Source of the DNA: Chiloscyllium plagiosum
Lineage: Eukaryota
Length of the DNA: 32,150 nucleotides
Reading direction: 5' to 3'
NCBI RefSeq assembly: GCF_004010195.1
Contig: NC_057719.1
Coordinates: forward strand, 31,883,525 to 31,915,674
Of this stretch, positions 878-31,069 are shown in pieces. The notes beneath the pieces are model-generated. The model saw only the letters and a program-made list of their open reading frames with translations. It had not been told where the DNA came from and did no database searches. Both the position numbers and the translations under genes were made by a program. Numbering within the stretch: the stretch's first letter is position 1; each line of letters begins with the position of its first letter.

Positions 878-879
878 AT

Positions 880-1390
880 TGTGCGAGATATGCGGCTGTC
901 CAGCCCCATCTCCGGCACTTTTATTTCCCTTCCCAGGAACAAAGACACGGAGGAGTCTGTCCAAAACTTTTCATTCAACTTTGCAAAGTCGGGTGCAATG
1001 CTTCGTGGGTACACACCCCTTAATAATAATCTCCACACATTATATACATGTAAATGTGGGCTGGGTCTCCTACTGCTGTCTTGACCAACGAGTGCTAGGG
1101 TTCCCACTGTTTTCCTTATTTGGGTTCTGGTGCCTGTTACTCACTTGGCCAATCAGTGTTTGAGTTCCCCGTTCTTTCCTTATATGGATGATGTTGTACA
1201 ACTGTGGTTAAGGGCGGTCTCTCAGCTATCGAGGAAAGCTGTTACAATTGTTTCATTCATAAAAACATGGGGGAGGTCCGGCACCAGTTTCGAGTGTCTG
1301 CTTGTGTTTACTATAAGGCACTTGTGTTTACTATAAGGTAGAAAAGACTAAAATGCAGCTAACCGTTTAAAAATTACACTACCCCCTACA
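880..1390 (-). repeat. ERV 5' LTR, about 511 bp
   Basis: Ends ...TCGCACA next to the PBS. Minus-strand TATATAA at 1040-1046 and AATAAA at 920-925. The 5' boundary TGTAGGGGG at 1390 is placed where Gypsy gag homology (..HSAVREPGES) stops; an alternative TG at 1411 is less likely. Confidence 0.8.
1114..1338. promoter_or_regulatory. LTR U3 enhancer/promoter motifs: two CArG boxes, a CCAAT box and a duplicated forkhead-type site
   Basis: CCTTATTTGG at 1114-1123, CCTTATATGG at 1178-1187, GGCCAATCAG at about 1147-1156, and CTTGTGTTTACTATAAGG duplicated at 1301-1318 and 1321-1338. Confidence 0.55.
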
Positions 1391-1676
1391 GACTCCCCCG
1401 GTTCTCTGACAGCTGAATGAAACAGATAGCATCTAAGAATTAGTGTCATAACATTCCTTCAGGAACTCTTTGAAGGTTTTCGTGTCCCATGCCTGTGGGA
1501 AAGTTAAGTCCCTTATAGTTGAAAATGCTGTGAGTCCACAAGCAGTCAGAAGGATTACTTGTTGCTTTTCATCTGCCCCAATGTTATTTGCCCGCAAAGA
1601 ATATTGCATTATATCCACATACAGGCCCAGGCTTCGACAACAGGAACAAATGAGTCAAGCTTCTAAATGCACGATG
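1391..1676 (-). pseudogene. Decayed Ty3/Gypsy LTR-retrotransposon gag N-terminus, interrupted by the ERV
   Basis: Frameshifted KLDSF..VEAW..YVDIMQYSLRANNIGADEKQQVILLTACG..AFSTIRDLTFPQAWDTKTFKE...LILRCYLFHSAVREPGES, typical of Gypsy Gag (ORF 1433..1618). Confidence 0.8.
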
Positions 1677-1812
1677 CCAGAAATGTTTACCCCAACTCCA
1701 AGATGGCAGTTGCAAGTGAATGTTCTTCAGGCATGTCATTTTTTTTCTCCCATTGCCATAGAAAGAACAGCACAGAGCCGATATCCCATCACCAAGTCAC
1801 CCTTTATTTATG

Positions 1813-2024
1813 AGTTGAAAATGTGTTGCTGGAAAAGCGCAGCAGGTCAGGCAGCATCCAGAGAACAGGAGAATCGACGTTTCGGGCATAAGCCCTTCTT
1901 CAGGAAGAAGGGCTTATGCCCGAAACGTCGATTCTCCTGTTCCCTGGATGCTGCCTGACCTGCTGCGCTTTTCCAGCAACACATTTTCAGCTCTGATCTC
2001 CAGCATCTGCAGACCTCACTTTCT
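1813..2024. mobile_element. Fold-back Penelope-like terminal-repeat (pLTR) insertion with a 12-bp TSD
   Basis: 90-bp inverted arms at 1812-1901 and 1904-1993 with 2 mismatches and a 2-nt loop. CCTTTATTTATG at 1801-1812 and 2025-2036. Similar to the Penelope termini at 29811 and 31438. Confidence 0.85.
1876..1903 (-). ncRNA. Minimal hammerhead ribozyme core (Penelope-associated type)
   Basis: Minus strand CTGAAGA-AGGGC-TTAT-GCCC-GAAAC-GTC, i.e. CUGANGA / stem II / GAAA / NUH. Confidence 0.65.
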
Positions 2025-2416
2025 CCTTTATTTATGCGTGTACAGTTCACTGGCTGTGGCCAGCCAGCTCGTAATTAGTTCACTCAAATGAGGAGATTCT
2101 AATCTCCTGTTTTTTTAAAAATAGTTGACAAGGTGGCAGCCTGAAACTTTTTTAGCTAACACAAGATGACTGAAAGGGTCTGACAGTTACATACAGCAGA
2201 TGTTCACAGCTAGACTTGTAGTCTCCCCGTACATATATTGGATAAGTTGAGATTCTCCTTAGGAAGAAACATTAAGAAGTTATCAGGTTTCTGTAAACAG
2301 GCAGTTCTAAATATATAAGCATTATAATAAGGGGCATTTTTTTGTAAGACCTAGTTTAGTCAAGTCTCAAGTTTGTTATTTAGTAAGAAGTAGAATGAAA
2401 TGTCTGATCCTACGTA

Positions 2417-2546
2417 AAATAACAGCACAGAGGGCGGGTCCCATCACCAAGTCACCCTTTATTTACTGGTGCACAGTATACTGGATGTGGCCAGCCAGTT
2501 TGGAGTCATTTCACTCAACTGAGGAGATTCTAATCTCCTGATTATA
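2417..2546 (-). repeat. Second partial copy of the Gypsy LTR (TATA to U5)
   Basis: Direct homology to 1765-1811 plus 2037-2110 without the Penelope insertion. Begins TATAATCAGGAGATTAG on the minus strand. Confidence 0.7.
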
Positions 2547-2927
2547 TATTAATTTGTTGATATTTATTTATGTAATTAGCAGGTTTGGTTTTGTATTTGT
2601 TCTAATATTCAAAAGAAAAAATTTCCTTTTCTTAATAAAAATATACACACATATATTTTTACAAAAATGTATACGTGGTCCACGGACTCCACAGCACAAC
2701 AGAACAACTATCCCCTGTTTATATTTTTTTCTGAGATTCTCATCTATCTCCTGGTTAAATATTTTTTCCTTTTTTTCAGAAAAATCAATCCTCAATAAAA
2801 AAGGAATATCAGTTAACAAACTGGCTATATAATTCAGCCAGTTCAGGAATCAGCCCCCCCCCCCAAAAACAAAGCAGAAACCAAAAGCAGCAGTAACACA
2901 TTGACTGAGTAAAAACAATGACTGCAG

Positions 2928-3142
2928 GTAAAGGGAATCGGTTTAGCTCAGTTAGCTGGATTGTTGGTTCACAAAGCAGTATGATACTAACAGTGTGAGT
3001 TCAATTCCCATCACTGGTTTGAGGTTACCATGAAGGACTCTCTTCCTCAACCTCTTCCCTCTCCTAAGGTCTGGTGGCCCTCAGGTTAAATCACCACCAG
3101 TTGCTTCTCTCTAATAAGAGAGCAGCTCCTATGCTCTCTACG
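2928..3142 (+). mobile_element. tRNA-derived SINE (3'-truncated), part of a TSD-flanked insertion at 2910-3142
   Basis: A-box-like TTAGCTCAGTTAG and B-box-like GAGTTCAATTCC. The body (TGAGGTTACCATGAAGGA...CTCAACCTCT..CCTC...CTCTCTAATxAG) is shared with the copies at 22078 and 28233. Confidence 0.8.
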
Positions 3143-3212
3143 CATTGACTGAGACCCAGCCAGCACAGAGTCAATCCCCTAGACTGAGGGGATTCTAAAG
3201 CTCATGGTTACA

Positions 3213-5752
3213 TTTTTTAAAAAATTCCCTGCGCTACTGCCTAACAGCGGTAGTGCCTATTTGTCCCCAGCACCCATGTTGTGTGTGCAGGTGTAGGTGT
3301 CTTAATCCTTATTTTCCACCACTAGGAAGGAAGGACACACCAGAGTGGCCAGTGACAAGCAATGCCCTTTCAAAGGACAGTGCTGAGTGATCAAAGGGGG
3401 AGGGGGGAGCACAGGGACTTAAATCAAAATGGATTTGGAGGGGGAAGTAAAACACTCTATACCCTGTGGTGCCCACCTCTCCCTGAAAATCCCGTTTATA
3501 TGGTATTGTGCAACCACCACGGACACAATTAAAACAGTTATTGGGAGGATGAGAAAGGGGCACAAAAATCCTTTGCCCTCACCAGAAATGCACCAAGGAA
3601 GTTCCTGATGCGCTCTCGCTCATTTATGTCCAGCTGAGGTGCTTGGCGAGCAGTCTGGGCCAACCAATATACCAGCTTGAAGGAGCTCCAGTGGTCAAGT
3701 GCCAGTTGGGCTCTATCCCGGTGACTGCGAGTTTCCTCGACAAAGTTCCAGAGTTCCTTGAGGGGGAGCTCGGTGGTGGGGTACCTGGGATTCAAAAACC
3801 TCACTGGAGAAGGACTCTGCGTCGTCCTCAGTGTCCACCACGGAACCCAAACCCTCCTCCGGGAATTTGGCCTTGGTCACTGGCCCCTCCCACATTGAGA
3901 GAGTGAAGGCTGGTCTGGCACTGCCAACAGGCCTCAAACCCCCAGCGACCCCACCCCCAGGGTCACCGGTGGTAACTTCCTCAGCGTACTCTTTCCTGGA
4001 ATGCCCCATCGGGTTGATGGGGGCTTGGGGCCCCGCTCCTCTTGACACTGGAACGCCCGGCTCTGCGGGGAAAAGGTCCTTCCCCAGTGTCAAGGCCCCC
4101 AGAAAAACAGTCTGGAGGGAGGAGTGAGGATAACACCTTCCTTCTCTCCACAGCTCGCTCACCAGCGGTGTTAAAATTATGACAGCCCGCACCTATGTGG
4201 GGCATAGGCTCGTCCCGGGGGGCTGGTGGAATAGTGGCATCAAGGGAACATGCTGTGACCCCTGGGGCTCTAGGTAAGTCAGGTAGTAGTGCAGGAAAGG
4301 CAGGAAGCGTGACAGGCACACCCCCTGGAAAAGGGTAGTGCTGTCAGTGTGCCGAAGAGAAATCCTCCCCTCCTGGGGGCAACATCTCTTCTAAGGTAAA
4401 TGCTGTCCCCTCCCCACCCAGCCTGGTGGTCATGGGGCCTGAGGCTCTGCCTCCCAACTTTACGTGGACTATGATTGGCTGGGGTAAGGCAGGGGGTGTG
4501 GCAAGAGCAGGGAGAGCCAGCTGTGTCACTTCCTATCCTGCCGGTGATGGGCCCAGAGACACTACTACTGGAGGATGGAGGGCAGCAACAGCAGGTTTCC
4601 CAAGGTCAGGGCCCAGTGGAGTGGGGCAGGGTTTGAGCTCAGGTGCCACAGGGCGAGGGTCAGACATGGATGCTCCAAGGATCGTCACATCTGGGCAGAG
4701 TCCACGCACAGAATCAGGGCATGAGGGGTCAGGATACCCATGCCGGGGTGAGCCGCGGCAAGGGCCTGATCCCAGGGGATGGGACAGGGTTACTTCCATG
4801 AGGGTAGGTGTGATGTGAATGCACTGGGCAGCCTTCTGGGTTGGGTGGTTCTTTCTTAAAAGCTCACCTTGTGGCACTGCACACCGTCCGCTATCCAGAA
4901 GATGCGATAGACCGCGCACTCATGGAGGAGGGTAAAGGAGCCCTCAGTGATCTCCTCCCAGGCCATGCAAATGAACACCTGGCTTCAAAATGAGCAAACG
5001 TGCTTAAGAGTGGGGTCCTTCAGACCAAGCAGGAGTGATTGGACACTTGATCGGCTTTCTCCCAGTGTTTGAAGATGGGGGAGAAGGAGCTTGCTGGCAA
5101 TGAATGGCGGGACATTGGAGACCTCTGGGTCATGACTTCCAAAGGATCAACAGGAAGGAATGACCTGTTCACAGTGAGCCCCCCTCTGCACTGGCTGCAG
5201 CGACGGTGGCCAGTGGGCTGACTACACTAGCCACGGCCTTACTGCAGGCCTCAGGCATTTAGTCGGATGCTTGAAAGAGATTGGGGTTGGGGTTGTAACC
5301 GGAGCTGGAGTGGCTGAGCCTAAGGCAGCACCTACCCTGGCATAGTTATGGCTGGGGCCTGTTGTCTTGGGGCTTGCCATATTGAGCTGCTTCTCAGGTG
5401 GTCTTCCTCTTTACGGACTTTGGGTGACAGTGACAAATTGGATGACTCAGGCAACAGCAGCAACAGTCCTTAGGTCTAAGCAGGCCCCAAGCAGCAGCAA
5501 CAGTGTTCAGGTGGAGGCAAGGCCCAGGCTACAGCAGTGGTGGTGGTACCTGCTTGTGCAGCTGAACACAGTTCTAATCGAAGGAGAAAAAATAGAAAAC
5601 CAATAAAGAAAACCAAAAGTTAAATGCATACCTTCGACAGGGGGAGAAAGAAAAAGAAACTCTCCTCCTTAGCGGAGACGAACAGCAGCAGTAGCACACT
5701 GACTGAAGCCTAGCCAGCACAGAGTGTAAAGACTCTAAATCTCCTAGTTATA
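3213..5752 (-). mobile_element. Tx1-clade non-LTR retrotransposon derivative: 5' UTR, decayed ORF1 (ATG about 5380 to 3538), nearly all of ORF2 deleted, 3' UTR
   Basis: ORF1 fragments are homologous to those at 10500-12495, with C-terminus ELPLKELWNFVEETRSHRDRAQLALDHWSSFKLVY. It joins directly to the last ORF2 codons (RERWAPQGIECFTSPSKSILI*) and a 3' UTR matching 8745-8990 and 23700-23930. Confidence 0.8.
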
Positions 5753-8656
5753 TTTTATTAAACAGTACAAAATATAGTTAACAATGAACAGGAGGCAGTG
5801 GTTCACAGAAGAAAGTGCTATATATAGGGGAAAGGGCAACAAAGCCAAACCCCAAACCCCACCGTTCAACCAGTTTTCAGGGAGATGAGGACAAACCTCA
5901 AATCCCACTTCCACTTGTCACAAACATAACGGTAATAAACACAGGCAAGAAACTGCAATCCAATCAGAAACAGTGCATAGAACACAGACCTAATATAGTT
6001 ATAAAAAAGACACCTGGCACCCATCCATATCGCATACTGATCAGATTGTCTTTGGCTAGCCTTCCTGCAGGACATTCGTCGGCCTTCCAGCACCCGGCCG
6101 CCCCGTGTACTGACTGACCCTTTCTCCTGGCCAGCATTCCTATGGGCTGGCCATCGGTTGTCAGACTCCCTGTGTACTGATTGGTCCTCCCCTGGTTGGC
6201 CTTCCTAAAGGCCCCCTGTCTCAGGCTTCCCATGTACTGACAGGCCTTTCCTATACTCCACCCACCCCGCACACTGACAGGCTCCTTCCGGACCACTTTC
6301 CTCCAAGCTGGTCATCAACTGTCCAGCCCCCAGCCAGCATGCGTAATGGCTGCCCCTCCCTTGACCAGCTTTCCTATGAGCACGCGTACTAACAGACCCC
6401 TCCCTCCGCAGCCCGCTGACCCCAGGTCAGTCATCGACCCACCAGCTCCTGATTGCCTCACATACTGACTAGCCTGCTCTGGTCCGTACTCAAACACAAT
6501 TAATTACAAAACCCATATACATGAACAGAATTCACAAAATCCTCACAACACAGTTTCCAGTACCAAGGCAGAGTCCACACCCAAAGGCAGAAAAAGCACA
6601 TCTCGCAGCACGCACAGGTGTTTATTCTCTTTAGGGGCCTGGCCCATCCATCGAGAACCCGGCCCACTAACAGGGAACACAGTACATTGTAAAGGTGCAG
6701 TTAACCCACAGGGGTAGAGTCCATTCCCAGAACCAGCAATTGCTCACTTCCAAGCATACACACTACAGGTGTTCAGTCTTTGCAGAGGCCTAGTCACCCA
6801 CAAAGGGCCAGGCCTACCCACAGAGGAACAATTCAGTTGGAAAGATGTATTTTTTCACAAGGGCTCAGCCCAAACACCAAAAAAGTGAAAGCACATTCCA
6901 AAAAAACAAAAACAAAAACAGAGTGCTAAGCCCTGCCACGAAATCAGCATTGCTATTTTCTCAAAATGAAAGAGAAAAGAGTGACACTCAGGTTGTAACC
7001 AACCAGTGAAACAATAGTTCCCTAATGAGAACCAACACACGTTGACTGTGAAGATCAGGCAGTTTAGAAATCAGTCCTCAATAAAAAAGGAATACCAGTT
7101 AACAAAACTGTCATTCTAATCATATAGCTTTACTTGTGTTTCTGACCTTTAAATCTCTTCTGACTATTCTAACATGAAATATTTGGGAAAGTATGGTGTA
7201 GTTTTTGTGGACGTGGATTCACAACTTGAAAAAAGAAGACATCTAATATTTTGCTTTGTACGTACTTTAACTGGTAATGGTATTGCTCCTAGTATTGCGT
7301 AGCCATCCAAAATTAGAATTTTTCTTTAGCAACAGAGAACATCTGATCTATAATATAACTAACCTAATTTCAATAGGCTAAAATTGGGAAGTGGTTTTGT
7401 AAATCATTGTCTATTAGAAAGAAGCAAGAATTCCAATTGGAAATGAAACGTACAGCTTTTCACACAAGTTTTTCAAATCAAAGATTGCAGATGTTTTTAG
7501 AGTTTTCATGTGTTCAGTTTGCATTATGTAAACAATTGTGAAAGTTGCTTATTTTTCCAACATATTGGTCCACATTTACATTTAAAATCCAGCACAATTT
7601 GCGAGTAATGTATCTACTGTAGATATTTTCTAACAAACCTATGCTCATCACTTGTATGGGTGTAGATATGGGGGAAGATTTAGCAAAAAGGAACTGCTCT
7701 TTATAAGTTGCTAGTATGAGTTTTGTGGGGCTTTATTGGCTGTGAACTGTCAATGTCAATTATTGTCATTCCTTTGAAATTAGCCAAACTCTCAAGGGCA
7801 AGAGCAGGTGAATGCAGAAATCCAATCATTCCCTGCAATGCTAAGGTGCACTATGACCCTACACTAACCCAACAATGAATCAGTTCATTTGGCAAGAACT
7901 CCCCTTTCTACTATGAGATAAAACACATTTAGGTGCTCAGTTGAGGAAAAACTCAACAATAGAGCTGACACTGAAAAATAGTTTCCTACTTATGGAGTAT
8001 TGTTAATGACTCCATTATGATTAATGAGTAGATATTCAAACTATTTTTATTGTATTTTTTTCCTTAAAATTCCTCTTCGAACTTCACCCAATATGTATAT
8101 TCCAATCTTTAGCGTGCAGTTTTATTTTAAAAAATGAGTTTTTATGCTTTTCAACAACCCATGAGGACACTTATGTGATTGGCTGCTTAGATAACTTGAT
8201 GACATAATTCCTGCTTCACATTAACAATCCTCTCAAGAATGTTGGAATCCAATGTGTGGTGAAAGAGAGAAATTCATGCTGTGGAGATTGCTAGATTTCT
8301 CAGCAAGTCTTTTTACAAGGTCAATGGTTAGCATTCTTGCTTTGCTGCTCATTGCAAAATCCAGGCTCAAATACATTTAATATTCTGAAACATACAGTTT
8401 ATTCTTTCTGTGAACAGCAAATCGACTTAACTCAAAAATGTACGGAAACTTTTTTGAAAGCCTTAAAGTAAACTTTAAGATTTTTCTTCTGTGAAAAAAA
8501 GAATTAACAAAACTAGCTTTGTAAACTTGCCAGTTTCAGAATCAGGTTCTCCAAAAGAAAAAAACAGACACCAACAGGAGCAGTAGCACATTGACTAAAG
8601 CCTAGCCAGCACAGTCAGTTCCCGAGACTGAGGGGATTCTAAATCTTCTGGGGTTT
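5753..8656 (-). mobile_element. Non-coding element sharing the Tx1 5' head (8656-8504, continuing 7109-5753), split by a 1.4-kb insertion
   Basis: Joining 7070-7109 to 8515-8650 gives a continuous match to 2782-2909 plus 3154-3210. Ends AATAAAA just before the next head motif. No credible ORF. Confidence 0.55.
7110..8503 (+). other. Retroposed AT-rich non-coding segment with an 11-bp TSD and a short A tail
   Basis: TTAACAAAACT at 7099-7109 and 8504-8514. Ends AGTAAA (8467-8472), 21 nt, then AAAAAAAGAA. Confidence 0.6.
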
Positions 8657-9336
8657 TTTTCCCTCTCTACAGAGTCAGACCTCTAAACTGAGGGGATTTT
8701 AAATCTCCTGGTTAGAAAATACTTTATTATCTCCTGATTATATGCTTGACCCCCACACTATCACCTAGCAGCGGTAGTGCTTATTTCTTCCCAGCACCAT
8801 GTTGTGTGCGTGCAGGTGTGAGACACAGTGAAAGACAGCAAGGGTACAAATCTTTATTTATATTCCACCACCAGGAAGAAAGGAAACACCAGAGTGTACA
8901 GTGACAAGCAGTGCCCTTCACATCAAAGGGCAATGCTGTGTGATCAAACAGTGAAGGGGGGGGGGGGGGGCAGGGATTAAATCAAAATAGAGTTGGAGGG
9001 GGAAGTAAAGCATTCCACTCCCTGCGGTGCCCACCTCTCCCTGAACAACTCCAGGGTGTCGGTGGACACCGCATGCTCCTTCTCTAGGGACACCTGGGCT
9101 CAAATGTAACCACAGAAAGGGGTCAGGCGATCGGCCATAATGACCCCCTCCATGGGCCGCTGCCCGGACTTGTTTATGGCCTGTTTGGCCAGGCCCAGTT
9201 GCAGTCCCACGAGGAGGTCCTCTGACCTACCCTCACCCCTCCGCACCGGGTGCCCAAAGATCAGGAGAGTGGGGCTGAAGTGCAACCAAAAGCAGAGGAG
9301 AAGGCTTTTAAGAAACTCTTAAATGGAGTGCAAGCA

Positions 9337-10154
9337 CCCACACCCAATATATACAGGGTTCACGGACTCCACAGCACCACAGAACAAGCAGTTGGGCTGG
9401 GAGTCCATGAACCACTGCAATCTGTGGTTACAGGGGACCGCTGCATGCAACACTCTCCACCCAAGATCCTTGAGAGAAAGGGGAGGACTCCCATGTAGAG
9501 AGCCTTCTACTGGGGATCTCCACCAGGTGGACGTTGTCTTGTATCCTCTGGCCCGGGACTGTGTAGGACTGGTCTGGGTGAATCATGTGGGTCAGCATGG
9601 ATATCAGGTGAGAAGACAACACACTGGTGAAAAGTTTGTAATCTGTGCTAATGAGGGAGACCGGACACCAGTTCTTTAGAGAACGAAGGTCCCGCTTCTT
9701 CGGCAGCAGGACGATGACCACCCTGAGCCAAGAAAGGGGTAGCTCCCCACACCCAATATATACAGGGTTCACGGACTCCACAGCACCACAGAACAAGCAG
9801 TTGGGCTGGGAGTCCATGAACCACTGAAATCTGTGGTTACAGGGGACCGCTGCGTGCAACACTCTCCACCCCAGATCCCTGAGAGAAAGGGGTGGACTCC
9901 CATGTAGAGAGCCTTCTACTGGGGATCTCCACCAGGTGGACGTTGTCTTGTATCCTCTGGCCCGGGACTGTATAGGACTGGTCTGGGTGAATCATGTGGG
10001 TCAGCATGGATATCAGGTGAGAAAACAACACACTGGTGAAAATTTTGTAATCTGTGCTAAGGAGGGAGACCGGACACCAGTTCTTTAGAGAACGAATGCC
10101 CCGCTTCTTCGGCAGCAGGACGATGACCGCCCTGAGCCAAGAAAGGGGTAGCTC
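9337..10154. repeat. 409-bp tandem duplication inside the Tx1 ORF2 remnant
   Basis: 9337-9745 versus 9746-10154, with offset 409 checked at both ends and about 11 substitutions counted by eye. Confidence 0.92.
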
Positions 10155-11075
10155 TCCAGCAGTTAGATACCTCCCCCCAGGACCTGTGCGTAGTCGCTCC
10201 CCAGGACGTCCCAGAATGTCCTGAAGAACTCCACAGTCAGCCCGTCCAGCCCCAGGGACTTGCCCCTCGAGAACCGGTAGAGGGCACGGGTCGGCTTCCC
10301 TAAGGTGACGGGATCATCTAGCCTTCCGGCATCCTCTGGGCTGAGCTGCGGCAGGTTCTTCCACAGAACTCTGCGAGCATCCTCACTGGATGGATCCGGA
10401 GAGAACAGGGCAGTGTAGTTGGAGCGAATTTGGGCACTGATATCCTCTAGATACGAGACAAGGGACCCGTCTGGGACCAGCAGCACTAGGCACCTGGAAA
10501 AACAGTCTGTGAGGAAGGAGTGAGGATAATACCTTCCTCCTCTCCACTGCTCGATGACCAGCAGCGTTAAAGTTATTACAGCCCACATCAAGGCCTACAT
10601 GGGGCACAGGCTTATCCCCAGGACCTGGTGGAATAGTGGCATCAGGGGAATGTGCTGCAGTCCTCAGGGCTCGGTTTGGTTATGGCTGCAGTGCAGGAAA
10701 AGCAGGAGGCGTTACAGGCACATCCCCCGGGGAAGGGTAGTGCCATCGGCACACCGCAGGGAAGTCCTCCCCCTCCTGGTGACAGTGACTGTGGTAAATA
10801 CTCTCCTCTCCCTGGCCACCCTGATGGTCATGGGGCCTAAGGCTCCACCCCTCAGCTATTCACAGAATATGATTGGCTGAGGGTTTGCAGGGGATGTGGC
10901 AAAGGCAGGGAGAGCCAGCTGTGTCACTTCCTGTCCTGCCCTGCGCTATCTGGTGTTGGGAAGTGGGGCAGGAGCCCAGTTTCCTGCCCAGGACTCAGAG
11001 GCACAGCTGCAGCAGGATGGGACACAGCAACAGCAGGTTCCCCAGGGTCAGAGCCAGGGCACAGAGGCAAGGGCA

Positions 11076-11115
<40 letters not shown>

Positions 11116-11150
11116 ACGGGCACGGGTTCGAGTTCGGGCTCGGGCTCGGG
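11076..11150. repeat. (GGGCTC)n hexamer microsatellite, about 12 units, in Tx1 ORF1
   Basis: Direct reading; encodes PE or PS runs on the minus strand. Confidence 0.95.
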
Positions 11151-11326
11151 GTGAGGAATTCTGGGGTCATGTGCCACAGGACAAGGGTCAGGCACAGATG
11201 CCCTGAGTGTTGCCACAACAGGGCAAGATTCGGGCATGGAATCGGGGGCTCGGTGGTCAGGGTTCCCATGCTGGGGTGACGTTAGTGTGGCCATACGGGT
11301 ATTGTCGCGCTGGGGTAGGCCAGGGT

Positions 11327-11721
11327 GAGAGTCTGATGCCAGGAGACGGGATGGCATTACTTCCACAAGGTGGACTTGATGTACTTGGTCTCCTTCCATG
11401 CTGTCTGTCTGGCTGGACACTCACCCCCCCCCCCCCCCCCCCCCCCCTCCCCCCTCCCCCCCAAGGGAATGTTGGATTACTTTGCGGCCTTGAACAAATA
11501 CTTTGAAGTGGGCGTCCCTGTGTATTTTGTCACCACCGCCGGCTACAATTTCTCTACCGTCGACGGAATGAACGGGGTCTGCTCGAGTGTGGGATGTTAC
11601 AACAAGAGAGTCTGATGCCAGGAGACGGGATGGCATTACTTCCACAAGGTGGACTTGATGTACTTGGTCTCCTTCCATGCTGTCTGTCTGGCTGGACACT
11701 CACCCCCCCCCCCCCCCCCCC
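11327..11721. repeat. Identical direct repeat (about 97 bp plus poly-C, offset 279) flanking the NPC1L1 fragment
   Basis: GAGAGTCTGATGCC...GGACACTCA(C)n at 11327 and at 11606; no mismatches seen. Confidence 0.92.
11469..11605 (+). pseudogene. NPC1L1: Isolated coding fragment of NPC1-like intracellular cholesterol transporter 1 (C-terminal luminal domain)
   Basis: MLDYFAALNKYFEVGVPVYFVTTAGYNFSTVDGMNGVCSSVGCYN aligns by recall with NPC1L1 ..LLDYFLFLNRYFEVGAPVYFVTTLGYNFSSEAGMNAICSSAGCNN. No other exons are in the window. Confidence 0.85.
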
Positions 11722-12698
11722 AGTGACCGGGGCACGAGTAGCCTCTGGCTTAGGCATTACTGATGGGGCTTCTGGTATTGTCTTAGAGGGAGGGCAGTGG
11801 GAGTGGATGTGGTGGTGCCACCCGTGACTGCTGGTGTGGGCAGGGCAGCCTTCTGGGTGGGGCAGTTCTTTCTTACACCTCACGGCATAAGTGGTTCTGC
11901 ATGCTGTCCGCCATCCAGAAGATGTGGTAGGCTGTGCCCTCATGGAGCAGCGTAAAGGAGCCCTTGGTGATCTCCTCCTGAGTCAGGCAAATGAACACCT
12001 GGCTTCGGAAGGAGTAAATGTGTGTAAGGGCAGGGTCCTTCAGATGGAGCAGGAGCGAAAGGACACCTGACTGAATTTCCCCTAGTGTTTGAAAATGAGG
12101 GGAAAGGATCTCACCAGCAATAAGTGGTGGGACATTGGAGATCATGACCCTCTGGGCCATGACCTCCAAAGGATCAACGGGAAGGAACGACCTGCTCACA
12201 GTGAGCCCCTTCTGCACGGCCAGGTGGACCACTGGGTTGGTCTGAACGGGAAAATATGGCCCTTCCCGTACATCTGGGCTGCAGCATTGATAGCCAGTGG
12301 GATGACCACACTAGCCATGGCCTTACTGCAGGCCTTGATGGTCATGTTGGGATGGGGATAGGCCTTAACCCCCAGACATTTAGTCAGGTGCCTGAAGGGG
12401 GTTGGGGTTGTAACCCGGGCTGGAGCTGCCGAGCCTAATGCAGCAGCTACCCTGGTATAGGTGCGGCTGAGGCCTGCTGTCTTGGGGCTCGCCATGTGGA
12501 GCTGCTGGATGCTTCGTGGTCTTTCCTGGGCTGTGGTGACAACTGAACAGCCCAGGCAGCAGCAGCAACAGTCTCTTGTGTTGTAGAGCCTCAAGCAGTA
12601 GTGGTGGAGGTAGGCCCCAGGCAACAGCAAGAGTCTAAAATCCAGGGGGCCTGGCAGCAGTGGAGGCAGAGCCCCGGTAGCAGCGGCGGTGTTCAGGT

Positions 12699-12750
12699 AG
12701 GGCTTATACCCGAAACATCGACTCTCCTGCTCCTCAGATGCTGCGTGACC
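12699..12750 (+). mobile_element. Short Penelope terminal-repeat fragment at the Tx1/Rex1 junction
   Basis: AGGGCTTATACCCGAAACATCGACTCTCCTGCTCCTCAGATGCTGCGTGACC matches 1909-1960. Confidence 0.8.
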
Positions 12751-12751
12751 G

Positions 12752-13650
12752 GATGTAGATCACTATCAGGATAGTGGCGTTGAACTCACATGGTGATTAG
12801 TAGGGATGGCACTTTACTGTAAGGTATTCTCATCCAGGGAGCAGTAACTTGCAAGGGTTGCCACATATGAGCACCAGGGGGATGTTGATTAGGAGGCAGA
12901 CCCCACACCCCCAGCCCTGCCCGAGAACACCGATCAGTCCCTTAGGTGAACTAAGAAACCCTCAGGCTGTAAGGCACAGTCAGGTGTAGCAGGAATGAGC
13001 CATGTCTCTGTAAAACAGTGCACAGCAGTCTCTCTGGAAGGTAAGTCTAGCTTTAAGTTAATTGACTTTGACTTTGTTTTCAATGGCTTGGATGTTTGCC
13101 AGGAGTATGCTGGGGTAGGGGATCTTGAAACCATGTTATTTCAGTCTCAGCTGCTGGCCAACACATTTCCCATGTTTCCTGGTAAGATGGCTGTGTCTGG
13201 TTGATCCTGGGTGTCAGTGTTGGACGTCTGCTGCTTTGGAGGGTGTGGAGCCTGGGTACAGGTCATGACCACGAGCACCAAGAGGTTGTTGGAGTTGGTT
13301 CCATGTTGCCTGGTCCCTTCAAGATCGGGTGCCTTTCCTGGGCTTGTTTGGCCTCCTTGTGATTGGGACAGGCCTCCTTCAAGATCGGGTGTCTTTCCTG
13401 AGTTGGATCAGGCCTCCTTGGGTCACTGCAGGGTCAGGTATTGTTCCTGGGCTGGTTGGGCCTCTGTTCAGGGTTTCCTCGAGGTCAGGAAGGTCGGGCC
13501 CGTGGGAAGCCGGTATGTTCATTCTAGGTTTTGTGGATCCAGTGTTTGTAATCGGACCTGGACAGTCATAGTATCTTTAGATCTGCCAGTAGATTTAAGT
13601 GAACATTGTTAGTAATTTTAACAGACTTAGAATTTAGGTTTAAGAGAGCA
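12752..13650 (-). mobile_element. Rex1/Babar-type LINE 5' part (decayed AP endonuclease plus 5' UTR)
   Basis: CFTETWLIPATPDCALQPEGFLVHLRD...SGRAGGVGVCLLIN...EYLTVKCHPY, with stops and frameshifts. Confidence 0.75.
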
Positions 13651-14164: not shown

Positions 14165-15260
14165 GTTTTCAAACTTCTTCTGCCTATGTCCCAAGTCACA
14201 CCAACTCCTGTTTACTCATTGCCTCTGTGCTTGTTGACTTATACTGGCTCAAGGCTGAGGGACATATTCATTTTTTTAAAATTCTCAAATTTCCATGCCG
14301 GGGTCCTTGTTATTTCTGTAACCACCTGCAGACTTCTTTATAATGTTTTGTAGCTCCGACAGCCCTCTTATCTTTGTAAGCTCCACCAGCTCCTAGATAC
14401 CTCCCTATCTCTGTAACTTCTTTTGCCTCTACATCCCTCCCTATCTCTTTAATCTACCCCAGCTCTTATACTGCTCCCTATCTCTGCGACCTTTTCCATT
14501 CCTGATATTCCTCCCTGCCTCTGATGTTCTTCAGTGCCTACACTCCTCCCCATATCTGTAGCCTCCTCCTACAATCCTCCTATCTTAATCTCCTCCAGTC
14601 TCGACATCCCTCCTTATCTTTGTAAACACCTCCAGCCCCTACATCCCTCCTTATCTCTGTAAACTCCTCCAGTCCCTACATCCCTCCTTATCTCTGCAAA
14701 CTCCTCCAGTCCTTACATCCCTCCCTATCTCTGCAAACACCTCCAGTCCCTACATCCCTCCCTATCTCTGTAAACACCTCCAGTCCCTACATCTCTCTCC
14801 CTGTCTCTGTAAACACCTCCAGCCCCTACATCCCTCCCCATCTCTGCAAACTCCTCCAGACCCTGCACCCCACCCTATCACTGTCACCCCCTCCAGACAC
14901 GATCAACATTTCCTGTACTTTCTTTGTGATGCACAGGTGATGGACAGCTCCTTTCGATGTATTTGTAGTATTGTGTACATGTGGTGGTATACACGGGGCT
15001 TTGTGGATGGCTGGTGCAGGGACGTTCATGTTGCATCATGGCTACTTGACCTTTCAAGGAACATTGTCTATAACCCTCCAAATGTGTTCCTTTAAATCTG
15101 GCTCTCATGCCTCCTAGATTGCTGGCAATGTTTTCGGTTACTGAGGTGTTCCTGTCTACACTTCTGATTCTCTATCTTAATTTCATCCTTTAAGACTCTT
15201 GTTAAACTTACCTGTTTAACCAAGTTATTGGTTAAATCTCATTATGCATCTTGTCTGGAT
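14165..15260 (+). mobile_element. Old L2-type LINE 3' end containing an expanded minisatellite
   Basis: Decayed QTSSAYVPSHTNSCLLIASVLVDLYWL..FKIL resembles the L2 ORF2 end (ITPVLADLHWL..FKIL..APPYLCNLLQP). L2-like tail near 15185-15235. Confidence 0.6.
14355..14880. repeat. 37-bp CT-rich minisatellite (CTCCAGTCCCTACATCCCTCCTTATCTCTGTAAACTC), degenerate toward the left
   Basis: ACATCCCTCC at 14641, 14678, 14715 and 14752 (period 37). Confidence 0.9.
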
Positions 15261-15865: not shown

Positions 15866-16354
15866 GATATTGTTACAGTTAGCATTGAGGAATTCAATGA
15901 GAAATGTTAATATATGATTGTAAATGTCAACAGACAAATGTGACCACAGTTAGTTATACAGGAGAGATTATTTGACTGGAAGTAATTGTTCTGTGCACAG
16001 AATGTAGTGATGGGTGAATCGTATGTTGTTGGGGTCTTTTTCTGGCTCTGCAGCCAGGAAGAAAGTCCCCACTGCTCCTTTTCAGGAAGAACACTGAACT
16101 ACATGACAATCATGGAAGTGGCAAGGCCATCAGTGAGCCTTTCCCTATAATCAAGACCTTGAGGATAGATATCCCACCTGGTGAGAACAGTTGGCCTCTG
16201 TATGTGCTGTCAAGAAGGCTTTGCTTGCTGTTAGAAGACCCATCCGCCTGAATCCCAGGACCATGGGGGTTCCAGGAGAAACATAAGGAATATGACAATG
16301 GGGTGGGTGATCGCAGGCATGTAGATCATGACGATAGAGGACCAAAACGATTGC

Positions 16355-16936
16355 AAAAGAATAGAAGCATGGAACACTTTCTAAATGGTGAGAAAATTCG
16401 GAAAGCCAAAGTACAGAGGGATCTGGGAGTGCTAGTTGAGGATTCTCTAAAGGTAAACATGCAGGTTGAGTCCGTGATTAAGAAAGCGAATGCAATGTTG
16501 TCAATTATCTCAAGAGGGTTGGAATATAAAAGCACTGATGTGCTACTGAGACTTTATAAAGCTCTGGTTAGGCCCCATTTGGAGTACTGTGTCCAGTTTT
16601 GGTCCCCACACCTCAGGAAGGACATACTGGCACTGGAGCGTGTCCAGCGGTAGAATTAGAGGGAGTAAATTTAGAACAGAAATGCGGAGACATTTCTTCA
16701 GCCAGAGAGTGGTGGGCCTGTGGAATTCATTGCCGCAGAGTGCAGTGGAGGCTGGGACGCTAAATGTCTTCAAGGCAGAAATTGATAAATTCTTGATGTC
16801 ACAAGGAATTAAGGGCTACAGGGAGAATGCGGGTAAGTGGAGTTGAAATGCCCATCAGCCATGATTGAATGGCGGAGTGGACTTGATGGGCCGAATGGCC
16901 TTACTTCTGCTCCTATGTCTTATGGTCTTATGGTCT
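16355..16936 (+). mobile_element. CR1 LINE 3' end with an internal deletion near 16650
   Basis: QRDLGVLVEDSLKVNMQVESVIKKANAML..LYKALVRPHLEYCVQFWSPHLRKDILALERVQR / FRTEMRRHFFSQRVVGLWNSLP, with a (TCTTATGG)n tail. Confidence 0.93.
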
Positions 16937-19900
16937 AAGCAAGAGTAGGAAGTTGGCTTTCATCAGGTCCTCTTTAGTTGGTGTCTAATTCCTCAACACA
17001 TGTTAATTGTCTTTAATCTAGGGAACACCACACCCTTTTGCACCTCACCTGCCATGAGGCAAAAAATAGCCCTCTCAGTTCCACCCACTGGGCATGATAC
17101 ATGGAGACCAACCTATCTGAATCCTGTGTGTTCATTAATTAGCCACGTCATGACATCAGTTGATGGCAGAATGGGAAGGTCAAGCATGGGCCTTATCACC
17201 CAGGGCACAATTATTTTGTGGAGGCAGCAAGATGGCAGCTTAGGTGACCGTGTCATCACTGTCCCTACACCCCAGTGAGAGCAGAAGATTCTGTCCAATA
17301 TTTAAGTGTGATGTTAAGTCACAGCCATTGACCATCATTTCTAAATATGCAACTTGTTGTTTAAAAAAAAAAACAGGTGTGTCAAGGGGTTCTGTTCAGT
17401 CTCAGAGCTGGCTCTGTGCTTGCTGAGGCAGCGTCACATACTATACACATACAAATAAAGGGTGACAATGTGGATCTATTTCAGAATTGGTGCCCCTGGT
17501 TGGGCCCTCTGTGACCCAAAGAGAGTTCTATTCCCAGTATTAATGTAACTACCACTGAAACATACCCTTCCATCCTCACCAATGCCCTGCACTGCCCCTC
17601 ATTGGCCTCTTAGCAGGACCTTTCTGACTGGTTGTGGTCACCTTGGCCACGATGTCCTTACTTCCAAAACAGCGTCCATGATGCTTACCCTGGATGGGTG
17701 CAGGAACTGCACTGACTACTGCTCCCAGCGGCGTTGCTGAGGCTGGAAAATGCTGGCCGTCTGACTTGATGGATGGGAGTCCTGACACTGGGCTCCTAAT
17801 TGTCAGATAGACATAAGCGGGGTTGTCCTTCAATGTCTGGCTGCTATCCTGAAAAATAACTTCCTGAATTAAATTCATTATCTAAAGACCATTGTGGAAA
17901 ATCTTTCCTTTCACTTGGGAAATAACAGCAACAGCAGGACTTTACTGTTCATAAACCTCAAGGATGTCTCAAAACCCTTCACATTCAATGAATTTCTTTT
18001 GAATGCATCATTGTTATTCTGTAGGTACTATAGACCTACCTATGAGAATATTTATTAAGGTGGTTGAAGAGTGAGTCAGTGGTATTATGCCATATATATT
18101 CTGATCAGCAGCTGAGCTGTGCATTAGTCATACATATCTGATCTCCACAAAAATACAGCACATTGGATGTTCCTCAGATTGCCTTTGTAAAAGCAAAAAT
18201 GAAAAAAAATCTCATATTTAATCATGATCAATGTGCTAACAACAAATTTACCCTCCTACGCAGCCCCTGTTCAATGTTCTGGACCAACCTCTTCAGTGTC
18301 ATCTTAGCTACTCAATTGAATAGTGCACGGTCAACTTCAACAGTGACTGAATGAAGCAACATTTCAAAATTTGATTTCAAAGAAAAATTCTGTTAAGAAA
18401 TCTGCCTTTTTCATCTCAATTAAAATTCTTTTTATGCACTATCCCTACTTATTCCAAGTTTTATACAACAATTTCATTTACAGAAAACATGGAGCACAGC
18501 CTTCCTTATGAAATTATGAAATTTTTAAATTGCCACTCCACCTGAATATAAAATTGAAACTTAGTAAAGTATAAAATTAATACGTTGGATATTCATTCAT
18601 AGTGAATAGCTATATGTCTGCTGTAAATATCTTAGGTGCAAAGCTATCGTCCACTCTGTAGTCTCAGGTATTGTTTAATCAAGTTGCTGTATAAGTCTAC
18701 GCAGTCACACAAAACTAATAAGTAGTTTAATGCATATGCTAATAAAGTAGGTGTATTTCTAAAACCACATACAAAAATTCATTAAATTACACATCCCTAA
18801 GGCTCTGACAAAATGGAAAAGAAATAACACATTCATGCCACAGTTAGAATTCAAGGCAACCAAATCAGTGGAGGTTACTGACAGATTTTGCAACATCGTC
18901 CGCAAATGAGATGAAACAGCCTATGAAACGTATGTTGAGAAAATAAAACATTAGATTGTACGGTGTTTAGGGAGTGAGTGGAGATGCTATTTGTGGCTCT
19001 GAATGGCTTGTGATCCTTCAGAGATTTGCCCCAAGCTGCAAAACACTGCACAGTGTAGTCATCTATTAATATTATTCTGCACTGACGTTTCATCTGAGTG
19101 AAGATTGCAAATTTTGCAATGTCCTCCCATAATCTGAATGAAATTCCCAAATGGTTATCAGCATACACATTGATTTAAAAAAACTGCTTGTTTGTGTTGA
19201 AAAATTAATTTTCATGCAAGAACAAACTCATTCCTCAAAATAGATAAGAGCAAAATGAGCAGAAGTGTGTGTGTACTGGGTATTACAGAGGTTTCTTCTC
19301 TAATTGAAAGCAATGCATCAATAATGTGTATGTCAAAGCATCCCTTAAGCAGCAAGATCGACTTTCTTCTGCTTCCTGTCCTTACATTTTGTCATAATTT
19401 TCTAGCGTTTGCTGGAGTAGTGCATCTCATTGTATGCTCCATTTGCATGCTGCCCACTTGTTATATACTCTCCTCACGGTTTCACTGTTTAAAAAAATTG
19501 CAAAGGAAGTTGCTGGAAGTGCCAATTATTAATTACATTATCAGTTCAATGGGAAATCTGTACTTTAATGAATGGATAGACTGTCTCTTGCATTAATCCA
19601 AGAGATTTGAAAATTTAGAAAGAAAAGGAGAGGAAAAACAGAAAAAGAAATGGAGTGAATTAGAGACAAATTAGATTCAGGAAAAGAAATAAAGGAAAAG
19701 ATTGGATTATGAGGGAAAAAAAGAAAAAGGCTGAAACAAATGCATTGTAACCTCTTCAGTTCAGTTATTTAGAAGCACCAATTGTCTGCAATTTACTTTG
19801 TCAGTTCCATCTCATCCAAGCATTCTTTCTAAATCACTGCTACTCTGTCCCCAGCACTCACTAATCACTGACATCTTGTCATTTTCCAGTAGGTGAACAT

Positions 19901-22226: not shown

Positions 22227-22325
22227 GCTGTTTAGGACATTGATTAGGCCAATTTGGAATATTATGTGCAATTCTGGTCTCCCTCCTATCGGAAGGGTTC
22301 AGCAAAAGTTTACAAGGATGTTGCC

Positions 22326-24063
22326 GGAAGGAGGGCAGGTCTGAAGACCTCCTCGTGGGTCTGCTCCTGGGCCTGGCCAAACTGGCCATCAACAAGTCCA
22401 GGCAGCGGGCCGTGGAGGGGGTCGTTAGGGCCGAATGCCTGCCCCTCTTCCGCGGTTACGTTAGAGCCCGGGTGTCCTTGGAGAAGGAGCACGCGGCGTC
22501 GACCAACACCCTGGAGTTGTTCAGGGAGAGGTGGGCGCCACAGGGAGTGGAGTGCATCATTTCTCCCTCCAACTCTATTTTGATTTAGTCCCTACCCACC
22601 CCTCCACTGTTTTGATCACACAGCACTGNNNNNNNNNNNNNNNNNNNNNNNNNNNNNNNNNNNNNNNNNNNNNNNNNNNNNNNNNNNNNNNNNNNNNNNN
22701 NNNNNNNNNNNNNNNNNNNNNNNNNNNNNNNNNNNNNNNNNNNNNNNNNNNNNNNNNNNNNNNNNNNNNNNNNNNNNNNNNNNNNNNNNNNNNNNNNNNN
22801 NNNNNNNNNNNNNNNNNNNNNNNNNNNNNNNNNNNNNNNNNNNNNNNNNNNNNNNNNNNNNNNNNNNNNNNNNNNNNNNNNNNNNNNNNNNNNNNNNNNN
22901 NNNNNNNNNNNNNNNNNNNNNNNNNNNNNNNNNNNNNNNNNNNNNNNNNNNNNNNNNNNNNNNNNNNNNNNNNNNNNNNNNNNNNNNNNNNNNNNNNNNN
23001 NNNNNNNNNNNNNNNNNNNNNNNNNNNNNNNNNNNNNNNNNNNNNNNNNNNNNNNNNNTAAAAAGGTGGGCCCTGTATCGACTGCTGCTGCATACCGTCC
23101 ACCTCTTCTCCCTCATCCACCGTCCGGACACGCCTTGGCGTGCCCATTTGCCACCGGGCGGTGGGGATCCCCAGTGGAGGGCTCTCTACGCGGGAGTCCT
23201 CCCCCTTTCTCTCGGGGATCTGGGGTGGAGGGTGCTGCATGCAGCAGTCCCCTGCAACCGCAGGTTGCGGTGGTTCACGGACTCCTAGCCCAACTGCTTG
23301 TTCTGTGGCGCTGTGGAGTCCGTGGACCACGTGTATATTGGGTGTGGGCGTTTGCACTCCCTTTTTGATTTTCTGAAAAACCTTCTCCTCTGTTTTTGGC
23401 TGCACTTCAGTCCCACGCTCCTGATCTTTGGGCACCCGGTACGGAGGAAGGAGGGCAGGTCTGAAGATCTCCTCGTGGTTCTGCTCCTGGGCCTGGCCAA
23501 ACTGGCCATTAACAGGTTCAGGCAGCGGGCCGTGGAGGGGGTCGTTAGGGCCGGCTGCCTGCCCCTCTTCCGCGGTTACGTTAGGGCCCGGGTGTCCTTG
23601 GAGAAGGAGCACGCGGCGTCGACCAACACCCTGGAGTTGTTCAGGGAGAGGTGGGCGCCGCAGGGGGTCGTGTGCATCATTTCTCCCTCCAATTCTATTT
23701 TGATTTAGTCCCTACCCTCCCCTTCACTGTTTTGATCACACAGCACTGCCCTTTGATGTGAAGGGCAGTGTTTGTCACTGGCCAACCGGGTGTTTTCCTA
23801 TCTTCCTGGTGGTGGAATTTGAATAAAGATTCGTGCACTTTGTGTCTTTCACTGTGTCTCACACCTGCGCACACACACACCATGGGTGCTCGGGATAAAA
23901 TAAGCACTACCGCACTTAGGTGGTAGTAAATAAAAAAAATATATATATAAATAGGGATTCACACAGCACTGCCCTTTGATGTGAAGGGCAGTGTTTGTCA
24001 CTGGCCACTTGAGTGTATGTGTGTGCAAAGGAAAAAAAGAAAGAAAAAAAAAGAAAAAAAAAA
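22326..24063 (+). mobile_element. Composite Tx1-clade insertion (two ORF2 3' ends plus an extra 3' UTR piece) with a poly(A) tail and a 14-bp TSD
   Basis: ACAAGGATGTTGCC at 22312-22325 and 24064-24077. Intact C-terminal ORF2 frame CLFCGAVESVDHVYIGC...FRERWAPQGVVCIISPSNSILI*. A tail at 24032-24063. Confidence 0.88.
22629..23058. other. Assembly gap (430 N)
   Basis: Run of N. Confidence 1.
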
Positions 24064-24799
24064 ACAAGGATGTTGCCAGGGTTGGAGTATTTGAACTATA
24101 GGGCTAAATAGGCTGGGGCAAAGTGTGGATTGTGTATGGAATGAACTGCCAGAGGAAGTGGTGGAGACTGGTGTATTTACAATATTTAAAAGACATCTGG
24201 AATGATATATGAATAGCAAGGGTTCAGGCGGATAAATGGGCCAAGTGCTGGCAAATGGGATGAGATTTGTTTAGGGTACCTAGTTGGCCTGTACAAATTG
24301 GACTAAAAGATCTGTTCCCATGCTGTACATCTTTATGACAAAGCAGACCTGTGGTCTGGTAGGATTAGGGTGACTTTGCCTTTTATATCTGCAGTATTTT
24401 CCAGTTCATAAACTTGTGATTAAGTATTCTAATGTCTTTCTACAATTCAGATAATTGACTTGATCTCAAGCATTCTGAACTGGGGCGGTTAGAGTGTTGT
24501 AAGAATTGTCCAAAAAAAAGAACCTTTTTTTAATTTTTGAAACCTCTATAGACTTTGGAGTTTCATTTGAGTTTTTTTGAGACTGGATTGGTAAAGTGGA
24601 AATAGAAGTACTTAACCTTCATGTTTGAAGTGTCCTTCTATTACTAAATGCAGTCCTAACTTCCCTCTGCAAGTTTAATACATGTTTACACTTTAAATGA
24701 AGTGACATGCTCTAATTTCTTGAAAGTCACAGGCATTTGACAGCAAGATTCTACTTCTCATAGTCTAAGTGCTGTCCAAACATTTGTGCAGATTCCCAA

Positions 24800-29810: not shown

Positions 29811-31069
29811 AGGTAAAAACAATGACTGCAGATGCTGGAAACCAGATTCTGGATTAGTGGTGCTGGAAGAGCACAGCAGTTCAGGCAGCATCCGAGGAGC
29901 AGTAAAATCGATGTTTTGGGCAAAAGCCCTTCATCAGGAAAAAAGGCAGAGAGCCTGAAGCATGGAGAGATAAGCTAGAGGAGGGTGGGGGTGGGGAGAA
30001 AGTAGCATAGAGTACAATATGTGAGTGGGGGAGTGGATGAAGGTGATAGGTCAGGGAGGAGGGTGGAGTGGATAGGTGGAAAAGAAGATAGGCAGGTAGG
30101 ACAACTCATGGGGACAGTGCTGAGCTCGAGGTTTGGAACTAGGGTGAGGTGGGGGAAGGGGAAATGAGGAAACTATTGAAGTCCACATTGATGCCCTGGG
30201 ATTGAAGTGTTCCAAGCGGAAGATGAAGTGTTCTTCCTCCAGGCGTCTGGTGGTGAGGGAACGGCGGTGAAGGAGGCCCAGGACCTCCATGTCCTCGGCA
30301 GAGTGGGAGGGGGAGTTGAAATGTTGGGCCACAGGGCAGTGTGGTTGATTGGTGCGGGTGTCCCGGAGATGTTTCCTAAAGTGCTCTGCTAGGACACGTC
30401 CAGTCTCCCCAATGTAGAGGAGACCGCATCGGGAGCAACGGATACAATAAATAATATTGGTGGATGTGCAGGTAAAACTTTGATGGATGTGGAAGGCTCC
30501 TTTAGGGCCTTGGATGGAGATGAGGGAGGAGGTGTGGGCGCTAGTTTTGCAATTCCTGCGGTGGCAGGAGAAGGTGCCAGGATGGGAGGGTGGGTTGTAG
30601 GGGGGTGTGGACCTGACCAGGTAGTCACGGAGGGAACGGTCTTTGCGGAAGGCGGAAAGGGGTGGAGAGGGAAATATATCCCTGGTGGTGGGGTCTTTTT
30701 GGAGGTGGCGAAAATGTCGGCGGATGATTTTGTTTATGCGAAGGTTGGTAGGGTGGAAGGTGAACACCAGGGGCATTCTGTCCTTGTTACAGTTGGAGGG
30801 GTGGGGTCTGAGGGCGGAGGTGCAGGATGTGGACGAGATGCATTGGAGGGAAGGGAAATAGCGGTCTCTAAAGAAGGAGGCCATCTGATGTGTTCTGTGG
30901 TGGAACTGGTCCTCCTGGGAGCAGATATGGTGGAGGCGGAGGAATTGGGAATACGGGATGACATTTTTGCAAGAGGGAGGGTGGGTAGAGGTGTAATCCA
31001 GGTGGCTGTGGGCGTCGGTGGGTTTGTAAAAAATATCGGTGTCAAATCGGTCGTCATTAATGGAGATGG
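29811..31069 (-). mobile_element. Penelope-like element 3' part: RT C-terminus, GIY-YIG endonuclease and terminal repeat
   Basis: TDIFYKPTDAHSHLDYTSTHP..IPYSQFLRL, FTCTSTNIIYCIRCSRCGLLYIGETGR.LAEHFRKH..PVAQHFN (ORF 30051..30884), and a pLTR at 29811-29960. Confidence 0.93.

Follow-up and report, generated by a model that had tools for sequence, protein, structure and literature searches.

We analysed a window of 32,150 nucleotides (nt) from Chiloscyllium plagiosum (contig NC_057719.1, positions 31,883,525 to 31,915,674 of the forward strand; positions below count from the first letter of the window). Its left part holds a stack of co-oriented pieces, among them Tx1-clade long interspersed nuclear elements (LINEs), joined at one short motif that also lies in the adjoining long terminal repeats (LTRs); this stack is real and fairly old. 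An initial annotation, made from the letters, had placed two large Tx1 derivatives, a non-coding element, a scrap of ~40 nt from Tx1 open reading frame 2 (ORF2) and very short stubs at this motif, with the Tx1 and LTR pieces co-oriented. That anatomy was borne out, with the scrap at 2666-2707 and all pieces on the minus strand. The pieces, and a second stack of the same family, are:

1436-1654, minus strand: decayed gag-like frame downstream of LTR-A, with a primer-binding-site-like start at ~1758
1760-2414, minus strand: LTR-A, unoccupied, with the motif at 2102-2115 and a putative U3 at 2116-2414
2415-2547, minus strand: LTR-B, of which only the right part is present (from the TATA region to the LTR end), with the motif at 2533-2547; right boundary of the stack
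2548-2665, minus strand: AT-rich piece, preceded by a 42-nt internal Tx1 ORF2 scrap (2666-2707)
2710-2759, minus strand: two motif copies (2710 and 2746) flanking a 22-nt stub with a terminal A run
2760-3212, minus strand: short deletion derivative of the non-coding element, with an LTR-like head (3143-3212); matches 8589-8646, 8504-8596 and 7068-7106
3213-5752, minus strand: Tx1 derivative 2, with a head (~5675-5752), a decayed ORF1-like region, the last ORF2 codons only, a 3' untranslated region (UTR) and an A/T tail
5753-8656, minus strand: non-coding element, with an LTR-like head (~8580-8656) and a 3' AATAAA signal
8657-8743, minus strand: 60-nt head monomer (motif 8703), 12-nt stub and motif 8729-8743
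8744-12698, minus strand: Tx1 derivative 1, with an ORF1-like region, ORF2 residues ~391-574 and 1136-1292 only, and a 3' UTR
22312-24077, plus strand: a second stack, independent of the first and lying within a CR1-like repeat; a scrap and two long pieces of this Tx1 family, the latter on either side of an N gap

Followed along the minus strand from 12756, the stack runs from a Penelope-like end through Tx1 derivative 1, the motif at 8729, the 12-nt stub, the 60-nt monomer and the non-coding element to Tx1 derivative 2, the short non-coding derivative, the two motifs with their stub, and the ORF2 scrap with the AT-rich piece; at the far end lie the right part of LTR-B (2547-2415), LTR-A (2414-1760) and the gag-like frame. 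The two Tx1 derivatives are 75-86% identical in blocks, and the scrap is 88-90% identical to Tx1 copies at 9346-9387, 9755-9796 and 23298-23339. Derivative 1 contains a 409-bp tandem duplication (9337-10158), and its 5' end is cut by the 58-bp fragment that caps the stack (12699-12756), which we take to be a Penelope-like end. Three later inserts, each with its own 11-12-bp duplication, occupy different sites in the stack and LTR-A. The first, on the plus strand at 2910-3142 and presumably related to short interspersed nuclear elements (SINEs), interrupts the short non-coding derivative (11-bp duplication at 2899/3143); the second is a 1.4-kb, plus-strand, AT-rich, poly(A)-tailed insert within the non-coding element (7110-8503, 11-bp duplication at 7099/8504); the third is a hairpin in LTR-A (1813-2024, a 182-bp palindrome beside an AATAAA signal, with a 12-bp duplication), which matches the ends of a GIY-YIG-like element at 29811-31583 and to which we apply the same assumed Penelope label. 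Of the frames that were scanned within the non-coding element and within its insert, only one gave a Pfam match, weak and below cut-off. Derivative 1 also contains a 45-codon stretch (11469-11603) that matches NPC1L1 (E 1e-16 to the human protein) and lies between two identical 116-bp copies beside long C runs (11327-11721); we see in it a probable mis-join of the assembly rather than an exon that was captured.

Public contigs from three organisms (sets X1, X13 and X18; 15 + 12 joint rows, 24 loose-end rows and 24 contig pieces listed) were compared with the window. An X1 contig crosses 8083-8826 with four differences, an X13 contig crosses 5467-5780, including the joint at 5739, with six, and X13 and X18 contigs cover ~7790-8712, including the joints from 8643 to 8703; the joints in 2533-3212 have no spanning contig among the matches listed. 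Since contigs of all three sets carry parts of the stack, joints included, these parts appear to be common to the three organisms. The 7110-8503 insert has one second, diverged contig in each set, and we therefore read it as a likely retrocopy of a single locus, a host 3' UTR. The same contigs bear on whether the stack is a local tandem duplication or an assembly artefact. The assembly does contain a gap and the probable mis-join near the C run at 11327-11721. However, the pieces between the motifs are unrelated to one another, no tandem repeat was called over 2102-8743, and contigs cross the joints at 8643-8745 (X1), 5739 (X13) and 8643-8703 (X13 and X18); we regard this explanation as having almost no chance of being correct.

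The motif or a recognisable remnant is present on the minus strand at all nine positions that the initial annotation had named (2102, 2533, 2710, 2746, 3199, 5739, 8643, 8703 and 8729). As reference we used the ~14-nt minus-strand consensus of that annotation, itself drawn from the nine copies. Six copies (2533, 2710, 2746, 5739, 8703 and 8729) have at most one mismatch to it, where 0.02 would be expected, and none of 100 shuffles reaches six copies, a test that is circular because the consensus was built from the same copies. The copies at 2102 and 3199 have two and three mismatches, and that at 8643 escapes a search at three mismatches and is recognised only through the sequence that follows the motif. 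A non-circular seed, the 15-mer at 2533, gives four further matches at two or fewer mismatches, all within 2548-8760 and none elsewhere in the window. In leave-one-out scoring, seven of the nine copies score above all 41,776 positions outside the array; 3199 is equalled or beaten by three outside positions and 8643 by 29. Conservation extends beyond plain A/T to an AGG.GAT core. Seven copies follow an A-rich stretch (at least 7 A in 15 nt), in agreement with the A-rich tails described earlier, the exceptions being 8729, with no tail, and 2102, which is preceded by a T run. The ~10-kb extent given for the array holds for the stack and not for the motif, copies of which are confined to 2102-8743, the remainder (8744-12698) being a single Tx1 derivative.

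The copies at 2102 and 2533 had been assigned to the TATA/start region of a Gypsy LTR. Both do lie in related LTR segments: LTR-B is identical to LTR-A at 73 of 88 nt (83%), and the likeness ends at the motif (upstream z = -1.0). The TATA/start function is putative, being suggested by spacing, and the Gypsy label, which found no library match, is one that we assume. Loose ends at 2439 in 154 X1 and 161 X18 contigs run into a common LTR-type end, which is high-copy.

Unrelated classes of sequence precede the motif: LTR U3, the AT-rich piece, two non-coding 3' ends and the Tx1 3' UTR. The motif is therefore not the 3' end of any one element and acts as a landing site, and we rejected the possibility that it is an element's own 3' terminus. 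The initial annotation had named, as one outcome that would count against it, an intrinsic terminal repeat absent from standalone LTRs; instead, unrelated 3' ends precede the motif, and the empty LTR-A carries it. Three Tx1 3' ends in the window are complete, and the motif or a variant follows each of them; the third lies 15 kb away on the other strand. Two have A-rich tails, and there is none at 8744. In an RNA run, a T run occurs at 8749, directly before the motif, in 239 reads, implying that those RNA molecules end without it.

The second stack is 84% identical to derivative 1. It is flanked by an exact 14-bp duplication at 22312 and 24064, across which the frame of the host repeat, presumably of CR1 type, continues; its left flank matches the frame at 16255-16653. 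The joint inside this stack, at 23945-23959, is motif-like: the motif is found there in place of the local 14-bp duplication, suggesting that ready-made pairs can be copied as one piece. Because the same Tx1 family lies with a 14-bp duplication in a CR1-like repeat, the target is not restricted to LTRs; only one of the two stacks in the window lies in an LTR, and the site preference would be a relaxed one. The earlier proposal of a Tx1 family that targets an LTR promoter thus stands as to the landing site and falls as to LTR exclusivity. A target in U2 or another small RNA, or in transfer RNA (tRNA), of the kind used by Keno, was rejected: an Rfam scan of 1-25000 at E<=1 gave no small nuclear RNA or tRNA, only three weak microRNA matches far below thresholds.

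The 15-mer at 8729-8743 is an exact duplicate of 2533-2547, and is the sole exact match to the local LTR site among the copies. Four others (3199, 5739, 8643 and 8703) begin LTR-like heads of 45-70 nt. Over the next 100 nt, the copies at 3199, 8643 and 8703 can be aligned with both LTRs (z 4-10), and that at 5739 with LTR-A (z 4-6) and weakly with LTR-B (z 1-2). The 8643 head is identical to LTR-B at 46 of 66 nt and to the 3199 head at 53 of 64, including a 19-nt exact match, and 3199, 8643 and 8703 have common longer alleles absent from both LTRs; a search for a 19-nt head pattern in metagenomes gave five loci, none alike beyond ~20-29 nt, which we treated as chance. Since these four copies begin longer heads with alleles unlike both local LTRs, duplication of the local LTR site does not account for most internal copies. 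The head, we infer, is a feature of the element family, derived once from the promoter and R region of the LTR. The LTR-derived heads carry their own motif, so the elements bring new target sites along. Indeed, units of head, A/T linker and motif are repeated at other loci of the X1 and X13 organisms: among the matches listed, joints at other loci lead from 5753 to 3156 (X1), and from 3209 to 3156 and 8713 to 3157 (X13), and X13 loose ends at 3156, 3189 and 8714 occur in 40, 16 and 45 contigs.

These heads bear on the earlier claim that the target is regenerated as a target-site duplication at each round. In its strict form, the claim is that the family is dedicated to the LTR TATA site and that every motif copy duplicates the local LTR site. 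The exact 15-mer common to 8729 and 2533 agrees with this, as does the motif in the empty LTR-A, and arrays of R1 are described as arising in this way (PMC2718515). However, the T of 2533 and 8729 is C in five of the six copies between them, as it is in the X13 loose-end consensus from other loci; the longer alleles at 3199, 8643 and 8703 have no source in either LTR; and the family has also entered the CR1-like repeat. Regeneration therefore holds for the 8729/2533 pair and not for most internal copies, and we consider the strict form improbable.

Another way to account for the exact pair is that the 2548-8728 block was built elsewhere and copied here in a single step, either through read-through of an older stack or through template jumping, within the 8729/2533 duplication, derivative 1 being added later. 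The only exact duplicate pair does bracket the whole block, and the inner joint of the second stack fits the transfer of ready-made pairs. Such a step would, however, move the question to the donor locus, where targeting would still be needed, and no second copy of the block is present among the 24 contig pieces listed. We think a one-step origin unlikely, and note that it is partly compatible with the growth by element-borne sites that we favour.

By ORF2 similarity, the large pieces are Tx1-clade LINEs, as initially proposed, with a reverse transcriptase (RT) and C-terminal region closest to Tx1L. The ORF2 C-terminus in the window matches protein P0001 at 68%, and P0001 is 41% identical to Xenopus Tx1 ORF2 over 99% of its own length; a tblastn search with Xenopus Tx1 ORF2 (P0010) maps residues 391-574 and 1136-1292 to derivative 1 and also matches the second stack, and identity to Tx1L (YTX2, P0010) is 55% over 97 amino acids of RT and 40-47% in the C-terminal part. 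Named proteins of a shark and of a sawfish contain parts of this ORF2. RVT_1 and zf-RVT matches in derivative 1 are weak and below cut-off; the placement is by similarity only, and the search for relatives gave three long proteins. The ORF1-like region, for which Atlas leads are all <0.9, is a candidate ORF1. A metagenome scan with the ORF2 C-terminus gave 476 candidates, of which none was confirmed. The tblastn search found no match to the endonuclease region (P0010 residues 1-390) anywhere in the window, and no ORF2 match in derivative 2. All Tx1 copies in the window are, as judged from their sequence, dead deletion derivatives without endonuclease, and the specificity of the enzyme therefore cannot be read from the window.

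A LINE need not have a sequence-specific enzyme to accumulate at such a site: a poly(A) LINE that is abundant and, like L1, favours T/A steps could make an ordinary nesting hot spot of AT-rich TATA boxes and tails. Orientation-biased hot spots are described as common in human repeats (PMC2836564), the CR1-like site resembles the motif only loosely, and contig coverage is far deeper over the Tx1 3' region than over the heads, depth here not being copy number. Nonetheless, conservation lies at the AGG.GAT core and not in A/T alone, the other inserts in the stack, which have 11-bp duplications of their own, entered at different sites, and Tx1L of Xenopus, the nearest named ORF2 relative, is reported to have a specific endonuclease (PMC1950540). 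We doubt that the stack arose by nesting of this ordinary kind.

We propose that the stack grew as elements entered, by target-primed insertion, a TATA-rich site that has an AGG.GAT core, with a 14-15-bp duplication and with additional sites supplied by the element heads, and we consider this account probable. A Tx1-clade LINE of cartilaginous fish would prefer a short TATA-rich site followed by the AGG.GAT core, a site that one LTR family has in its promoter region and that the LINE family also has in its own 5' head. The enzyme would nick at the TATA run, and the RNA would be copied in by target-primed reverse transcription; duplication of ~14-15 bp would keep the site on both sides of the insert. 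Because full-length elements and non-coding derivatives would begin with a 45-70-nt head copied long ago from the promoter and R region of the LTR, each complete insertion would deliver a new landing site, and new copies, scraps and occasional other RNAs would land before older ones in the same orientation, building head-to-tail stacks.

Several observations weigh against this account. No copy in the window retains an endonuclease, and the left half of the split LTR-B was not found at significance beyond 12756 (best z 2.0, 8/200 shuffles). The heads continue into a common non-LTR stretch, of which only ~15 nt are present in all three, and two of three pair tests on it are not significant. A profile built from the array alone speaks for the account, ranking the CR1-like duplication site 21st of 41,776 for the motif, and the 23945 joint 61st of 41,776 ungapped and first with a one-base gap; the gap option, however, was added after that site was known, and A-rich tails inflate these ranks. 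The RNA reads derive mostly from other copies (1835 of 2399 are <90% alike) and may have been primed on genomic A runs. Lastly, among the listed contig joints none leads from a Tx1 3' end straight to the LTR, and the 3' flanks counted for the targeting claim are those of the window.

The account of element-borne sites could be extended to transcription. In five of the nine copies (2102, 2533, 3199, 8643 and 8703), a fixed distance of ~28-30 nt separates the TATA run from an initiator-like TCAKT, judged against an initiator consensus that we assume; this spacing hints, tentatively, at working promoters. We can imagine, with considerable reserve, a form of promoter piracy, in which the LINE inserts between the LTR TATA box and start, the LTR start region having been captured as its own head. 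A TATA-initiator promoter might then be restored at every joint, serving both to drive the following element and as the target of the next insertion, and the stubs of 30-60 nt might be short promoter-proximal RNAs that were copied into the promoter from which they came. In telomeric head-to-tail arrays of HeT-A, a promoter is reported to form across the joint of neighbouring copies (PMC5537684); HeT-A differs in clade, in being added to chromosome ends and in having a host function, so that it serves as an analogy for the promoter reading only.

The gag-like frame of the LTR element has five matches at E<=0.001, four plausible unnamed homologs and one repeat protein judged spurious; one homolog reaches Ty3_capsid only at E 0.2. 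For the frame itself a word-index search was empty, Pfam and PDB gave no match, and Atlas leads were <0.9 and bacterial, so the name Gypsy gag, too, is our assumption. No pol was recognised in the window, and the element is interrupted at ~1377 by another LTR. This second LTR, endogenous-retrovirus-like and ~500 bp long (879-1377, minus strand), interrupts the gag-like frame. An 18-nt stretch after it (~861-878) is presumably a tRNA-Pro primer site, and six 73-bp tandem repeats lie beyond it at 132-568 (region 132-878). At 2414-2415 the end of LTR-B adjoins the possible start of the LTR-A U3, like a head-to-tail LTR-LTR joint; alternatively, 2116-2414 could be another inserted piece, and coverage there is low-copy. 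A short plus-strand LTR-like piece at 17340-17470 is related to the R-U5 of LTR-B (z 4.9); it has no insertion, and an A run stands where the TATA motif would be. Its likeness to U3 is not significant. Elsewhere in the window are a larger Penelope-like element (29811-31583) with inverted ends and a weak GIY-YIG match, a 37-bp minisatellite of ~14.6 copies (14369-14896), and a GC-rich open frame of 135 amino acids with short internal repeats and no Pfam match (13205-13612).

The initial annotation knew of no Tx1 family specific for an LTR TATA site. LTR-preferring Tx1 families have in fact been published: Tx1-8_Crp and Tx1-4_AMi, crocodilian Tx1-clade LINEs, prefer LTR retrotransposons (Kojima 2015, PMC4494074). 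They resemble the window family in this preference and differ in host; the available text of PMC4494074 gives neither the LTR type nor the site, and its available sections do not mention for them an LTR-promoter-derived head such as the window family has. In the same work, SINEU and Tx1 copies flank each other at a common target, the 5' extension of SINEU-2B resembles its target, and a family counts as target-specific when one sequence type makes up >20% of flanks (PMC4494074). Tx1L of Xenopus laevis likewise inserts in another transposon (PMC1950540), in its case the DNA transposon Tx1D, whereas the window copies are without endonuclease. Arrays within a duplicated target are also published: R1 in Drosophila 28S genes forms arrays at one site with a 14-bp duplication between copies, new copies having entered the duplication that lies at the 5' end of an older one (Stage and Eickbush 2009, PMC2718515). 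R1 belongs to its own clade, targets ribosomal DNA and has the duplication only as spacer, whereas several window joints have a longer head. Utopia-1_NVit also inserts in tandem (PMC4640811). For an LTR-targeting Tx1 family of sharks we found no publication, in a search mostly at the level of titles and abstract starts, with Repbase, Dfam and subscription papers outside it, and to this extent the earlier statement stands.

The targeting habit is thus already described for the Tx1 group, of which the window is a further example, and without proof of promoter function it is a tidy example of known behaviour. It adds a case from cartilaginous fish to the Tx1 families for which another transposon serves as a safe place to land, and points to a route of stack growth in which the target is kept and spare targets are carried in the element head. 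If the joints are working promoters, this would be a clear instance of a LINE that lives off the core promoter of an LTR while disabling that LTR. From an intact natural copy, should one exist, an endonuclease with a new preference for a short site could be obtained.

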